IMG/VR virus record: IMGVR_UViG_3300032132_000009
Location: 1 to 58,539 of that record
DNA: 58,539 bases
Reading direction: 5' to 3' (one strand)
From: a virus
Taxonomy: Duplodnaviria; Caudoviricetes
The translations under genes and the position numbers were made by a program. Under the pieces are notes generated by a model, which did not search any database, was not told the DNA's origin, and saw nothing but the letters and a program-made list of their open reading frames with translations. Of the stretch, positions 44,234 through 53,328 are shown in pieces (the stretch's first letter is position 1; the number at the start of each line of letters is the position of its first letter).

Positions 44234-44784
44234 CCCTTACACAAAGAAAGAAACTCGGCTCGTACTTCAGGTTTACTGAACACACCCGTAAGTTTAGACG
44301 TTACCATACTTCCATGTGATTTGACGCCCCTAAACTTCATACAGCTATGCTCGCCACTCATCTGTACGCCCACTCCACGACACCCTTCAATTGAAGTATG
44401 AAGACACTCTGCAATTTCATCAGTCAGACGCTCTTGCACTTGCAAGCGTCGTGCAAGCGCTTGCACCGCTCGCGGAATTTTACTTAGGCCCACTATTCGA
44501 CGATGTGGGATATATGCTACGTGTACTGTACCCCAAAACGGAAGCATGTGATGTTCACATAAACTTATGAACGGTACGTCCCTAACGACAATCATTTCGT
44601 CGCAATCAGAGTAAAATTGCTTACTCAAATAATTTTTCGGATTTTCGTCGTAGCCCGAAAGGAATTCACGATATGCTTTGACGACTCGTTGAGGTGTTTC
44701 TTGTAGCCCGTCCCGCTCTGCATTTTCTTCCAGAGTAGAAAGAAATTTTTTTAACGCCTCTCCCAGTTGTATATCTACCGGCAC
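44230..44784 (-). CDS. folE: GTP cyclohydrolase I
   Basis: [37 protein letters not shown] and [9 protein letters not shown]. GTG at 44784 is the likely start (ORF track 44859). Confidence 0.95.
   Translation of the reverse strand: [184 protein letters not shown]
44451..44466. repeat. Dispersed palindrome copy 19 (in folE)
   Basis: Perfect; encodes VQALAR. Confidence 0.92.
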
Positions 44785-45377
44785 TTCCAAAACTTGTGAT
44801 TCTGAACACTTAGCATCCACGGGGTCTTGCTCGCCTGCTTGACTTGACTCACACACCATTTTAACGCCTCCCTATCCATTTCATTTCCATCGAATACTGG
44901 ACTTAATAGATAATACTTTGCTTTTGTATTAGGAACTGGAGGTTGCTTACCCGCAGGCAATACATACTTAACTTCATCGCATGTGTCTACTCGAATAGTA
45001 TGTTCTGCTGTTTTGGGACTCACCGTTACCCAGTCTAAAAAAGTTAATGCGGGATTGTCTACTGTCCCGTTGGTTTCAATTGCAAGGTAGTACCCCCGAT
45101 GCTTTAACTGATCCACCAGTGTCGCATCCAACTGTAAAGCAGGCTCACCTCCGGTAAAAATAATAGCTTTACAACTTTCTGCAATATCGTCAATACGGGC
45201 ACACAACTCATCAAGTGTGACATCTTCACTACCAGTGTAATCCGTATCGCAATCGAAACCATGTTCTTTCACGTTACACTTCAAATTACAATGAGAAAAG
45301 CGAACAAACACATTAGCTGTACCTGTTCGCGCCCCTTCACCTTGAATAGACAAAAAAATTTCATTGACTTTATACAT
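44775..45377 (-). CDS. queE: 7-carboxy-7-deazaguanine synthase (radical SAM)
   Basis: EIFLSIQGEG, CNLKC.......CDT, TGGEP, IETNGT, TVSPK and SVQNHK. Confidence 0.95.
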   Translation of the reverse strand: MYKVNEIFLSIQGEGARTGTANVFVRFSHCNLKCNVKEHGFDCDTDYTGSEDVTLDELCARIDDIAESCKAIIFTGGEPALQLDATLVDQLKHRGYYLAIETNGTVDNPALTFLDWVTVSPKTAEHTIRVDTCDEVKYVLPAGKQPPVPNTKAKYYLLSPVFDGNEMDREALKWCVSQVKQASKTPWMLSVQNHKFWKCR

Positions 45378-45834
45378 GGTCCCTCACAACAACAGCCGAA
45401 CAATTTTCAGTCTCATGGACAGTAACTGATTTTAGGGCAACGTTATACCCTTCTAACCTACTCTTAAAGTAGTCGTCGTGCATCAAAAAAGAAGCGAGGT
45501 TCTCAGCCGTAGGGTTTGAAGCAAGTAGGAATAATTTTTGTTGTTGTTTCCCTGTATCAAATCCAGTTAATACGTTGATCGCCTCGCTATCTTCTGTAAA
45601 CAAAATAAAACCGTGGTCCCAATGCCGCTGAATCCAAGGATCATAAATGTCCTTGATCACCGAAAAATCAACTATTCGACCTACCGAATCCAGTTCCTTT
45701 CGGCAGTCATGCAACGTCTCGGCCTCCAAGTACACCACATAGTTATGCCCATGCAAATGAGCACACTTGCTCTCATGATTCATTACTCTGTGGCCTGCAC
45801 AGAATTGCAATCGTCGCGTGCATGATATGGGCAT
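45370..45834 (-). CDS. queD: 6-carboxytetrahydropterin synthase
   Basis: FCAGHR, CAHLHGHNY, DFS, WDH, NPTAENLA and ETENC. Confidence 0.93.
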   Translation of the reverse strand: MPISCTRRLQFCAGHRVMNHESKCAHLHGHNYVVYLEAETLHDCRKELDSVGRIVDFSVIKDIYDPWIQRHWDHGFILFTEDSEAINVLTGFDTGKQQQKLFLLASNPTAENLASFLMHDDYFKSRLEGYNVALKSVTVHETENCSAVVVRDHV

Positions 45835-45861
45835 TATACTTCCTTTGCAATTAATGTCAAG

Positions 45862-46530
45862 TTATTTATCGTCCATATCCGCAAACGCAAATGCTTCAAT
45901 ACGCTCTTGGCACGCTCCGCACTTACCGCAAGCCTCGTCTAAGCCCACATAGCAAGTCCACGTTTTACTATACGGCACTCCCAGACCCTTACCGAACACA
46001 CAGATGTCAGATTTACTAAACGCAATAAAGGGGGCTTCCAGTAAGATGGGATGCCAGTCGCACAGACTGATCGACTGTGCAAGCGCTTGCACAAATCGAG
46101 GACGACAATCAGGATAGATGGAATGATCCCCGGAATGAGCGCCATACATCAACGTGGCCGCTTTTAACGAGATAGCCCATGCGGTAGCCACCGAAAGCAT
46201 AATCATGTTTCGGTTAGGCACTACAGTTGTCTTCATATTTTCATCTGCGTAATGCCCATGAGGTACGTCAACGTTAGGATTAGTCTGTGAGCTGTCACCA
46301 AAAATCTCAGAAATACTGCTGATATCAATTATCTTATGAGGAATACTTACCCCAAACACCTTTTCAGCGTTAGCAACAAAATTTTTAGCATACTCAAGTT
46401 CCTTGCTATGCCTCTGCCCATAATCCACTGAAACACAAGCTACAGACTTGCCAAGTTTAAGCCGCCACCACAATAGGGTAGCGGAATCCATGCCTCCCGA
46501 AAAAATAACAACTTCATCAACTTTGGACAT
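45862..46530 (-). CDS. queC: 7-cyano-7-deazaguanine synthase
   Basis: FSGGMDS, DYGQRH..E, VPNRN, YPDCR and TWTCY...CGKCGAC.ER. Confidence 0.96.
   Translation of the reverse strand: [222 protein letters not shown]
46077..46092. repeat. Dispersed palindrome copy 20 (in queC)
   Basis: Perfect; encodes VQALAQ. Confidence 0.92.
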
Positions 46531-51826: not shown

Positions 51827-52181
51827 GCTGCTTTAGCTCCTGACTTGATATAGTTACTTCATTAACTTTTCGTTTTATCCGCGCCCTAAGATCATTGTAT
51901 TCCGTGATTCTCTTGTAATTGACAAGCTGAGTCGGTTCCGACATACGAACCGAATCCTCCAAACGCCATAACTCAGCATGGATAACCATCAACCATCTAT
52001 GAGCGTCGTACACTAGCCTAGTCCACTTTAAATCCTTCAACGATTCCCATAGCGTCAAAACGTGAGCACCTTGCTTAACCACGTCTTCCACTGAGCCACT
52101 GCTCAAAATCGCACGGTATCGAACCTCCTCAATACACAATCTGTCGATAATTTCACCGTAACTAACGTCCATAGTAGGCAT
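51735..52181 (-). CDS. DUF6165-like protein
   Basis: VSYGEIIDRL.I...LWRLEDSVR...NDLRARIKRKVN. Confidence 0.65.
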   Translation of the reverse strand: MPTMDVSYGEIIDRLCIEEVRYRAILSSGSVEDVVKQGAHVLTLWESLKDLKWTRLVYDAHRWLMVIHAELWRLEDSVRMSEPTQLVNYKRITEYNDLRARIKRKVNEVTISSQELKQHELFGQQEIYPDVFLNLVGSGASTEVLSSV

Positions 52182-52183
52182 GT

Positions 52184-52753
52184 CTACCTCGAATATCCAA
52201 AATTGTCCAATAATACTTTTCTCAACTGCTCACCCCGATTTGCATCCAAGGTACGAGCAACACTTACATAATACGAAGAATCCACTTCAAGTTTATTGCA
52301 CATATCTTGGATTTGCAACTCCACTCCTAACGCCATGTCAATCCAAGATTCCTCAGTACGTAATCGAAGCAGTAAAGTTTTGAGTGTAGCTTCTTTTGAA
52401 TTACCTAAATACTTTACTAACAAGTTATGACTACGTTCCGCCGACTTCACATACTTCTGCATGAGATTAGCCAAAACACTACGTAATGACTTAAATCGTC
52501 TATCTTCCCGCAACTTTAAGTGTGCCTCTGTTTGCTTGATGTCCCTCTGTATTGACTCCAATCGCCGTTGTAACTCTGAGTTGTCAACCACACTTGACAT
52601 AGTTACCGTGTCTAGCACACGATACACTACTTTGTCACGCCGAACTCTTTGAATATGAAATTTTATCCTATCACGTTTACTCCTCTTTTGTAGTTTGTTT
52701 AGTAATGGTTCGTTTGCGTAGTAAGGTAAGTTTGTCTCCATTCGTGTCCTCAA
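52184..52753 (-). CDS. Hypothetical basic coiled-coil protein
   Basis: 189-aa ORF coupled to the exonuclease gene. Confidence 0.55.
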   Translation of the reverse strand: MRTRMETNLPYYANEPLLNKLQKRSKRDRIKFHIQRVRRDKVVYRVLDTVTMSSVVDNSELQRRLESIQRDIKQTEAHLKLREDRRFKSLRSVLANLMQKYVKSAERSHNLLVKYLGNSKEATLKTLLLRLRTEESWIDMALGVELQIQDMCNKLEVDSSYYVSVARTLDANRGEQLRKVLLDNFGYSR

Positions 52754-53328
52754 AATTCGTACAACTCGAACTCTTCATCCACTTCAGCGTCGTTTACCTC
52801 CTGTTCCCGTAAAGCATGAAACACCTGTAAAGTTTTTTGGCAATCGTCTAATGCCCGATGACCTGGGGGAGTCAAGTGCAAGCGCTTGCACACTGCCGAT
52901 AGGCTCCACGGCGAATTTTGTTCAGCATACGTTTCTTGCCATACCGTAGCTAAGTCTAAATGTCGGTTTGAATGCCGAAAATCGCACCCTGTATATCCAC
53001 ATTGATATCGTAGTAACACTGGATCAATCGCAGACCAACTGGCTATCGTCGTCTTTCTTGCGAAATCCGCGAATTCGTCGTACACTTCGGTCCACTTGGG
53101 AGCTATTTCTAATTCACTTTTATCGATTTGTGTAATTGCTTCTATTTTCGGAGTGTAGTCTTCCCAATGCAACGGGTACACTAAACTGGAATACTTTCCT
53201 GCAGGTTCCCCATTTTTAGTTACCCTTAGCGCGCCTAACTCCAAAATACTTGGCATCCCATGCCTAGAATACGCAACGGGTTGGTCGCCATACTCTAAGT
53301 CAAAAATAATAATATCCGTTTTGAACAT
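52750..53328 (-). CDS. DEDDh 3'-5' exonuclease
   Basis: IIFDLE, ILELGA, D and HRALDD motifs. Confidence 0.88.
   Translation of the reverse strand: MFKTDIIIFDLEYGDQPVAYSRHGMPSILELGALRVTKNGEPAGKYSSLVYPLHWEDYTPKIEAITQIDKSELEIAPKWTEVYDEFADFARKTTIASWSAIDPVLLRYQCGYTGCDFRHSNRHLDLATVWQETYAEQNSPWSLSAVCKRLHLTPPGHRALDDCQKTLQVFHALREQEVNDAEVDEEFELYEF
52876..52891. repeat. Dispersed palindrome copy 23 (in exonuclease gene)
   Basis: Perfect; encodes CKRLH. Confidence 0.92.

Follow-up and report, generated by a model that had tools for sequence, protein, structure and literature searches.

The closest described counterpart of the repeat array studied here is the 17-bp palindrome 5'-TGTTCGGNNNCCGAACA of the Cluster O mycobacteriophages. 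The section of that study devoted to the repeat gives 34 copies, 14 of them intergenic and 11 clearly in genes, which are mostly shared in position among relatives and in some cases have been lost by single base changes; its authors suggest a dimeric binding protein, and the function is not known (PMC4351075). Our subject is a 14-base palindrome in IMG/VR record IMGVR_UViG_3300032132_000009 (Duplodnaviria; Caudoviricetes), a 58.5-kb fragment of an uncultured virus that is estimated to be 58% complete; we refer to the whole 58,539-nt stretch analysed as the window. Like the Cluster O repeats, the palindrome forms a set of tens of invariant inverted repeats (26 here; 31, 26, 19, 14 and 11 in relatives), a mix of intergenic and in-gene copies with positions shared among relatives. 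Unlike them, it has another sequence and belongs to another phage group and habitat, its half-sites abut a 2-bp centre instead of a 3-bp spacer, and it is common to phages of 37-60% G+C that have almost no shared genes. Even spacing and protein recoding, which the Cluster O section does not report, are quantified below. The two arrays are alike in type and not by descent.

Recoding of genes by a DNA signal has a bacterial precedent. The DNA uptake sequences of Pasteurellaceae and Neisseriaceae accumulate in genes by substitution and enrich the encoded peptides, and the study describes a reading-frame bias, a preference for poorly conserved positions and little constraint on proteins (Findlay and Redfield 2009, PMC2817400). 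The phage palindrome resembles them in its excess of encoded QALA peptides (10 versus 0.35 expected), its use of the three frames (10:2:0) and the lack of any 5-6-residue insertion in eight host genes. Uptake sequences are, however, bacterial, selected for DNA uptake, asymmetric and present in hundreds to thousands of copies, whereas the phage site has given FolE residues that are absent or nearly so in 65 homologues.

Other systems are less similar. The stoperators of Cluster A mycobacteriophages are many short sites bound by one phage protein; the cited passage describes them as asymmetric and bound by the monomeric immunity repressor of temperate phages, which halts transcription (PMC9283540). 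Here the site is a perfect dyad, its asymmetric variant in the relative G002 occurs in both orientations (11 versus 10), and no repressor or integrase was seen. Plasmid RK2 carries 12 OB sites over ~60 kb. In ParB-parS and KorB-OB systems, as summarized in the passages cited, a short palindrome is read by a ParB-fold protein able to load and slide, and KorB mediates long-range gene silencing on RK2 (PMC11790492, PMC8367383). The phage likewise encodes a ParB_N-fold protein, but one without the canonical helix-turn-helix (HTH) and with a predicted ribbon-helix-helix-like C terminus instead. The CytR operator has the same inverted TGCAA/TTGCA pentamer half-sites and a short spacer, and differs in the variability of that spacer and in the weak, CRP-dependent affinity that the relevant section reports (PMC3454398); the phage site reads TGCAAG, not TGCAAC, and its centre is CG, CA or TA. 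A text search of the literature did not find the 14-mer string, and literature searches found no account of the array or of the phage group. This is a new, widely shared phage dyad array, for which the Cluster O repeats are the array-type precedent and uptake sequences the recoding-type precedent.

The palindrome is frequent, evenly spaced and present in genes

At up to two mismatches, the 14-base sequence TGCAAGCGCTTGCA has 26 matches in the 58.5 kb, 22 exact and four with one central change; 100 dinucleotide shuffles gave a mean of 0.18 and a maximum of 2. A G usually precedes the core and a C follows it, which makes a 16-mer, GTGCAAGCGCTTGCAC, with 15 exact copies and 10 that differ by one base. 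Beyond this G...C beside the core, the 20-nt flanks of all 26 copies have nothing in common and show no target duplication. The average density is about one site per 2.2 kb in a sequence of 44% G+C whose long genes all lie on the - strand.

Twelve sites lie clearly in open reading frames (ORFs) of 94-481 residues, the same number as the initial annotation had counted inside coding sequences; 12 are intergenic and two are ambiguous. Most intergenic copies follow a stop codon and stand 0-10 nt ahead of the next Shine-Dalgarno sequence, and non-coding DNA, which makes up 10% of the window, contains 14 of the 26 sites (P = 3e-8). Four host genes had been named from sequence as FolE, QueC, a DEDDh exonuclease and Gmd, and Pfam gives GTP cyclohydrolase I, QueC, RNase_T/DEDDh exonuclease and GDP-mannose dehydratase, respectively; all the peptides then quoted, including LSAVCKRLHL, are found in window ORFs. 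Matches in PHROGs place a head-protease-like protein and a deoxynucleoside monophosphate (dNMP)-kinase-like protein among the host genes.

The sites are spread more evenly than expected. The coefficient of variation of their spacing is 0.52 against 0.96 in simulations (P = 0.0002), the complete relative G002 is similarly even, and no two neighbouring sites are more than 4.8 kb apart, where the simulations gave 8.4 kb as the mean largest gap. When the 14 non-genic sites were held fixed, random placing of the 12 in-gene sites gave equal evenness in 0.02% of trials (P = 0.0002). The in-gene sites fill gaps between the intergenic ones. Evenness, gap filling and non-coding enrichment together support the earlier proposal of selection on site density.

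The array is shared by divergent uncultured phages

We collected array-bearing viral contigs by exact-match and protein-guided scans. These comprise G002 (complete, 93 kb with terminal repeats, 55% G+C, 31 sites), G003 (50 kb, 40%, 26 sites), G006 (98 kb, 46%, 19 sites), G009 (33 kb, 44%, 14 sites), G001 (60 kb, 60%, 11 sites) and L279 (20.7 kb out of a 68-kb contig, 37%, 13 sites). Across the G+C range of 37-60%, the phages have few genes in common. G009 is syntenic with positions 21-55 kb of the window at protein identities of 30-76%. The sequencing runs nearest to the window are marine, seawater or viral metagenomes. The terminases of the nearest cultured phages are only ~20% identical to that of the window, and a megablast search of positions 44000-53000 against cultured phages returned no match.

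One relative lacks the array. In G010, whose capsid is 64% and terminase 51% identical to those of the window, 38.9 kb contain neither a copy of TGCAA-N4-TTGCA nor any other palindrome of 12 or 14 nt that is repeated. Recovery of its full genome would make it a natural control without the array.

In-gene sites arose by substitution

Homologues could be aligned for eight of the 12 host genes, the main sample of homologues being 80 viral loci (1.2 Mb) fetched with QueC. None of the eight has a 5-6-residue insertion at the site. Alignments are free of gaps to within five residues of the site for 65 of 65 FolE homologues and for 79 of 80 QueC homologues. The FolE segment also aligns ungapped to the human homologue in the PDB, and the QueC segment stands ungapped opposite YPDCRDEFVKALNQAIVL (2pg3) and YPDCRDEFVKSCNVTVNL (3bl5). 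For the exonuclease (52750-53328; site 52877..52890, reading CKRLH before HRALDD), which had no tblastn match in the QueC-locus set, the comparison consists of one PDB chain and two orthologues: SLSAVCKRLHLTPP-GHRALDD lies opposite SLDSVVEKLGLGPFRHHRALDD (2p1j), and the sole gap is past the site, the phage protein being the shorter. In GDP-mannose 4,6-dehydratase (Gmd; 9429-10409) the site (9441..9454) encodes MQALA as part of the C-terminal tail, where it overlaps the start region of the next gene; it falls in the last eight residues, and the PDB alignments stop there. Compared with their G009 and G003 orthologues, the protease, the kinase-like protein, the exonuclease and a glycosyltransferase (GT)-like protein have no extra residues at the site, and wherever these alignments show gaps nearby the window protein is the shorter.

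The central claim of the initial annotation, that the palindrome entered conserved enzymes by substitution and not by insertion, with no residues added, was thus borne out wherever alignment was possible; neither an insertion in the eight host genes nor a target duplication in the flanks of the 26 copies appeared. Homologues without the array do not carry the same codons either: the 1.2 Mb around the 80 QueC homologues contain no copy of the motif, even at one mismatch.

How far the site departs from the family sequence differs between genes. At the five FolE site positions, the 65 homologues have V in 58, Q in none (E, D or G instead), A in none (Y in 33, W in 13), L in one (F in 31, C in 20) and the final A in 31, such that the family, in this viral sample at least, hardly ever has three of the five residues. 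The closest QueC homologues read V-D/E/K/A-A/Q/V-L-x and so were already near the motif peptide, requiring only two or three changes. At the exonuclease position G009 has CKELA (TGC AAG GAG TTG GCA) and G003 has CELFN; the codons TGC AAG in G009 indicate that the place already held half a site. Sites tend to fall where the ancestral peptide was already close, and the cost was therefore small except in FolE. Taken together, an origin by substitution with selection acting at the DNA level is highly probable.

Frame use follows composition and the peptides follow the motif

Ten in-gene sites are read as (V/M)QALA and two as CKRLH. The earlier statement that no site uses the third frame, ASAC, holds for the window and fails as a rule, since relatives use that frame in long ORFs (NASACT in ORFs of 956, 550 and 320 residues, the GT-like gene of G009 and two cases in L279). 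At least 10 of 12 sites in one frame would have P = 0.0016 if the frames were equal. The peptide frequencies expected from composition are 0.35 : 0.10 : 0.13 for the QALA-, CKRLH- and ASAC-type frames; on those proportions, which are close to the pooled frame use across phages (hand count, crude gene calls), 10 of 12 is unremarkable (roughly P = 0.08, hand calculation). The bias matches composition, so no cause is needed beyond the ordinariness of each peptide.

The 17,676 codons of - strand ORFs contain 10 QALA tetrapeptides, all encoded by the motif and none outside it. Every one is written CAA GCG CTT GCA, a choice to which codon usage gives P = 0.011 per peptide. That all synonymous positions match across copies, as had been observed, is correct (10 of 10), and it is a consequence of the exactness of the motif. 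Selection for VQALA as a protein motif was considered and is excluded: the hosts are unrelated, their codons are identical, copies also occur between genes, and in L279 the peptide tracks the motif centre.

Sites are retained at saturating divergence and replaced nearby

Seven in-gene sites could be compared with G009, and four are at the same aligned position, all reading VQALA: those in FolE (44230-44859; site 44452..44465), QueC (45862-46530; site 46078..46091), the dNMP-kinase-like ORF 50110-50811, near its C terminus (site 50131..50144), and the head-protease-like ORF 38646-40064 (site 39390..39403). The proteins concerned are 30-58% identical, and in the kinase-like and protease proteins the residues flanking the shared site are almost wholly different in G009. 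At identical residues in 12 gene pairs, third-codon identity was 16 of 20 in the four shared sites compared with 768 of 1711 (45%) elsewhere (P = 1.5e-3), a synonymous background near saturation; the four differences within sites are all the same GCG -> GCA change. L279 FolE has a site at the same position, which reads VQVLA because the motif centre there is TA. A protein-level explanation cannot yield this VQALA/VQVLA pattern. Several intergenic sites are also shared with G009, by coordinate mapping.

Where a site is not retained, another is found close by. The CKRLH site at 36569..36582, in the GT-9-like ORF 36310-37464, corresponds to a G009 site ~14 residues upstream and in the ASAC frame. 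The single site of the G003 protease lies 180 residues further on, with QALAQ opposite QEVAK; L279 has sites in QueD and near the N terminus of the kinase-like protein, where the window has none; and the exonuclease site, absent from G009 and G003, is missing in G009 where a site occurs one gene further on. Turnover keeps one site per neighbourhood in the G003 protease, the G009 GT-like gene and the L279 kinase-like and QueD genes. The suggestion that sites arose or were kept where the protein tolerates the peptide is therefore upheld as to their being kept, in places where the peptide was already close, and is not upheld as to recent origin: the sites are old, retained and slow to turn over.

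In a strain ~95% identical to the window, none of the 40 differences listed, out of 866, lies inside a site. Contigs of two runs of such a strain join position 45865 to 47180 with 32 other letters between, so that strain lacks QueC, the DUF6884 gene and the QueC site.

The half-sites are invariant and the centre follows GCGC avoidance

The outer TGCAA...TTGCA is invariant across all array-bearing phages, and the four central bases differ by lineage. In the window the centre is GCGC (CG in 22 of 26 sites); all 14 sites of G009 have GCAC/GTGC, the 13 sites of L279 have GTAC (nine) or GCAC (four), 21 of 30 in G002 have ACGC/GCGT, and G006 has GCGA/TCGC. The step between the TGCAAG halves in the window, G009 and L279 is CG, CA/TG or TA, always pyrimidine-purine. 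These shifts track the avoidance of the GCGC tetramer, observed/expected 1/31 in G009, 0/12 in L279 and 113/134 in the window, and are best read as restriction avoidance tolerated by the function of the site. Symmetry, invariant half-sites, a tolerated centre and, in G002, both orientations of an asymmetric variant fit a two-fold symmetric protein on duplex DNA, and the array is probably a set of binding sites for such a protein.

All four GCAC-centre sites of L279 (2551, 10789, 13691 and 15699) are in the VQALA frame, where GTA would change Ala to Val; these centres may be a compromise between motif and protein, with a chance of ~0.1 by hand calculation. Other palindromes are also purged: GCATGC is observed/expected 0/14.0 in the window and 0/8.9 in G001, and TGCGCA 0/11.5 in G006.

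A ParB-like protein is a candidate binder

By BLASTP clustering, the only families common to all four distant array-bearing lineages are the capsid, the portal and a ParB-like protein; no small DNA-binding protein common to all of them was found by BLASTP at 1e-3. ParB_N matches are present in G001, G002, G003, G006 and G009, and there are none in the array-less G010. In the window the gene lies at 48306..49007 on the - strand (the true start is likely 11 codons in) and encodes a ParB_N fold, an acidic linker and a C-terminal strand-helix-helix; the protein matches phrog_620 at 2e-30, with Pfam ParB_N below threshold. Foldseek comparison of a monomer model matched the predicted N-domain, and the N-terminal fold alone, to pNOB8 ParB, Noc, ParB and KorB (E 7e-6 to 5e-4). 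The rest of the model consists of a low-confidence, acidic disordered linker followed by a conserved RGM-VQFSV and two predicted helices. Pfam found no canonical HTH after the N-domain, and when the last 59 and the last 80 residues were scanned by themselves, Pfam gave only noise.

When the C-terminal 65 residues were modelled as a homodimer, the predicted dimer scored 0.51 against 0.00 for the best control, with pLDDT (predicted local distance difference test) of at least 69 and runs that agreed in at least 95% of contacts. A score of 0.51 was reached by 20 of 30 proteins solved as one-chain pairs and by one of 23 solved as single chains, and may reflect likeness to solved dimers of that kind. 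The predicted dimer has symmetric strand contacts (175:175 and 174:176), as in ribbon-helix-helix proteins. TGCA is itself palindromic and each site has two TGCA 10 bp apart, so two C-terminal dimers on one face of the DNA would fit. We treat the ParB-like protein, on the strength of these models, as a tentative candidate for the binder of the palindrome.

A proposed DNA-level explanation and its limits

We propose that the dyad TGCAAG-YR-CTTGCA is a cis-acting DNA site kept evenly spread over the phage chromosome. A site would be placed in an intergenic gap where one is available; in long or tightly packed genes it would be built into the coding sequence by point substitutions that leave the protein length unchanged, preferentially where the peptide is already close (V-x-A/Q-L-x helices, C-K-x-L, C-terminal tails) and mostly in the (V/M)QALA frame, whose peptide is the blandest of the three. 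After that, purifying selection on DNA would keep the 14 bases in place, with the local protein sequence following the motif. A two-fold symmetric protein would read the outer TGCAA half-sites on double-stranded DNA and tolerate any pyrimidine-purine centre, which could then drift from CG to CA/TG or TA in relatives purging GCGC. The ParB_N protein with its ribbon-helix-helix-like C-terminal dimer domain could be that binder, a suggestion that we hold weakly. For the core of this explanation, that the motif was written in by substitution and kept by DNA-level selection and that it is a protein-binding site, we estimate a probability of roughly 0.75.

Several points weigh against parts of this account. 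The host genes of the sites at 2668, 4609, 15328 and 17309 (ORFs 2251-3123, 3697-5142, 14860-15489 and 16100-17479) yielded no fetched homologue and lie outside the indel comparison, and in the 94-residue ORF 25243-25527 the VQALA of the site at 25390..25403 stands opposite TQR-A in a G009 orthologue that has no site, a one-residue length difference at the site itself. If no gene has room for more than one site, part of the evenness would follow from that. The array-less control, G010, is only 38% complete. As for the binder, the ParB-like proteins are heterogeneous although the motif is the same: those of G003 and G006 belong to a different subfamily with unrelated C-terminal strand residues, and those of G001 and G002b are fused to methyltransferase domains (N6_N4_Mtase and Methyltransf_23, respectively). 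More distant ParB-like relatives (24-33% identity, six loci) have no motif nearby, and the window is incomplete, so the true binder may lie outside it.

Alternative explanations

One more specific reading concerns DNA modification. A DpdA-like (tRNA-guanine transglycosylase-like) gene (47535..48296, - strand) adjoins the ParB-like gene in three phages, the window, G009 and L279, with a site between the two genes in each (48292..48305 in the window, with the centre variant GCAC; 8946 in G009; 10789 in L279). In Salmonella, according to the cited passage, DpdA-dependent preQ0 insertion requires the ParB-like ATPase DpdB (PMC10164549). On the grounds of this adjacency, the methyltransferase fusions and the DpdA/DpdB precedent, the palindromes could act as loading sites and thereby identify the phage chromosome as 'self' to the DNA-modification machinery of the phage. 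From each palindrome, a ParB-fold NTPase loaded there would spread the ~2 kb to the next and bring or activate a base modifier, which would be the DpdA-like transglycosylase inserting 7-deazaguanine in the window, G009 and L279 and the fused methyltransferase in G001 and G002. If true, even spacing would ensure complete and rapid modification of phage but not host DNA, and the imposition of sites even on enzyme genes would thereby be explained. The examined parts of G003 and G006 have no DpdA or methyltransferase pairing, and we consider this reading unlikely.

The adjacency of the DpdA-like and ParB-like genes, which itself recalls bacterial DpdA/DpdB, belongs to a larger cluster at 44230-49007 on the - strand, in the order FolE, QueE-like radical SAM, QueD (PTPS), QueC, DUF6884, a 126-residue ORF, DpdA-like and ParB-like. 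We also considered 7-deazaguanine modification as the general cause of the array and rejected it: the complete genome G002 has 31 sites and no FolE, QueC or DpdA match at E 1e-5.

LacI-family operators have the general shape TG-N-AA-N-CG-N-TT-N-CA, in which the central CG is used by the hinge helices and defines the family operator. The phage sites, with TGCAA half-sites as in CytR and four bases between TGCAA and TTGCA, could accordingly imitate an operator, that of a CytR- or PurR-type repressor of the host, which would be titrated during replication or recruited; a LacI-type HTH was not found in the window, G001, G002, G006 or G009, so such a binder would come from the host. The CytR consensus is given as TGCAA-N2-3-TTGCA and the optimal inverted octamer pair as AATGYCAAC-GC-GTTGCATT, in a section that reports CytR only from Enterobacterales and Vibrionales (PMC3454398). 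This is a narrow range for phages that span 37-60% G+C with few shared genes, for which a common host regulator is doubtful. The central CG, found in 22 of 26 window sites, occurs in none of the 14 sites of G009 and none of the 13 of L279, and titration of a repressor does not require even spacing. Neither the nearest cultured phages (~20% terminase identity) nor a scan of bacterial genomes pointed to a host: among the matches listed, the 16-mer had single hits in unrelated taxa, at about the level of chance (rough estimate). We judge an operator mimic of this kind improbable, to about the same degree as the modification reading.

A lower probability still attaches to an RNA hairpin in long - strand transcripts, acting as a processing, stability or translation signal upstream of ribosome-binding sites, with the in-gene copies doing the same. 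The genes all lie on one strand, the intergenic copies immediately precede Shine-Dalgarno sequences, and a 6-7-bp stem with a GCGC loop is predicted. The fold is weak, however: two plain intergenic cases gave -7.4 and -8.9 kcal/mol (z about -0.7), no better than shuffles, and the stem is invariant, without compensatory changes. In G002 the two orientations of the asymmetric variant on the + strand are about equally frequent, and both occur inside + strand ORFs (crude gene calls), where one gives an A-C mismatch in the mRNA. A terminator fares no better: the sites lack a T-run, terminator-like sites are no commoner than in shuffles, and Rfam gave no match. A terminator scan of 38600-58539 flagged one of 10 sites, and that on the non-coding strand; sigma-70-like promoters and terminator-like sites are at background level and do not coincide with the palindromes.

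We regard as very improbable the idea that the 14-mers are micro-homology linkers for recombination or module exchange, or were spread by gene conversion, with no binder at all. The same motif does stand at gene boundaries in very divergent phages, and indels flanked by two repeat copies in Cluster O are attributed, in the section on those repeats, to recombination between them (PMC4351075). Selection for evolvability is weak, yet the sites override FolE residues and are held at saturating divergence, and the shifts of the centre, which affect whole arrays and go in step with GCGC avoidance, are what a constraint limited to the half-sites would allow. Where contig ends and one joint fall at sites, they were examined as possible recombinants or breaks and are explained by partial alignment of other palindrome copies. 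[quoted passage not shown]

Implications of the array

Under the DNA-level explanation, protein sequence in the window yields to a non-coding DNA signal, and natural examples of this are seldom so clean. The pentapeptide shared by five unrelated proteins is there only because a 14-base site has to be, and it changes with the centre of the site. We know of no clearer evidence that enzyme sequences have had sites of this kind forced on them and have kept them. Whatever binds it, the array is under strong, long-lasting selection for even coverage of the genome. It spans a widespread group of uncultured aquatic phages of ~90-100 kb and makes a good starting point in the search for a new DNA-protein system that acts across whole phage genomes. 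A conserved peptide in a phage enzyme, VQALA being one example, can be driven by DNA and not by function, and the centre of a binding site can record restriction avoidance of GCGC.

Positions of the remaining sites

From the left end of the window, the first in-gene site (2668..2681) encodes MQALA in the 290-residue ORF 2251-3123 and another (4609..4622) encodes VQALA in the 481-residue ORF 3697-5142, both ORFs being without an assigned function. The intergenic sites at 3144..3157 and 3683..3696 have the centre variant GTGC, and the latter directly follows the stop of ORF 3697-5142. An intergenic site at 7326..7339 has a stop codon on one side and the GAGGG Shine-Dalgarno sequence of the next gene on the other; similarly, 11593..11606 lies between a stop codon and a GGAGG Shine-Dalgarno sequence. 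MQALA is again encoded at 15328..15341, in the 209-residue ORF 14860-15489, and VQALA at 17309..17322, in the 459-residue ORF 16100-17479.

Further intergenic copies are at 20558..20571; at 26641..26654, with a GTGC centre and a G009 site (30041) between the orthologous genes by coordinate mapping; at 28564..28577, before a GGAGG Shine-Dalgarno sequence and also present, by coordinate mapping, in G003 (42769) and G009 (27675); and at 32759..32772, immediately 5' of an ATG. The site at 37553..37566, downstream of the major capsid gene, is absent from G009 and G003, while that at 41901..41914, between the large terminase and portal genes, has the same place in G009 (16541) and G003 (30700). Towards the right end, 55495..55508 precedes a GAGG Shine-Dalgarno sequence. 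Of the two ambiguous sites, 57484..57497 is at or before the start of ORF 57033-57500, either intergenic or at codons 2-6 if a TTG start is used, and 57828..57841 is in the CKRLH frame of a doubtful 104-residue ORF.

Three minor observations concern the FolE-QueD region. Beside the FolE site, at 44430-44450, the codons of RRLQVQERL hold outward-facing half-sites (CTTGCAAGTGCAAG), probably a by-product of the conserved peptide. Between QueC and QueD, at 45833-45860 on the - strand, is a perfect sigma-70 consensus (TTGACA, 16 nt, TATAAT; 12/12), the only perfect one in 38.6-58.5 kb. Finally, 85 nt (44775-44859) are common to the longest FolE ORF and the end of the QueE-like gene; given this overlap and a Pfam match that begins at residue 34, the true FolE start is probably further in.

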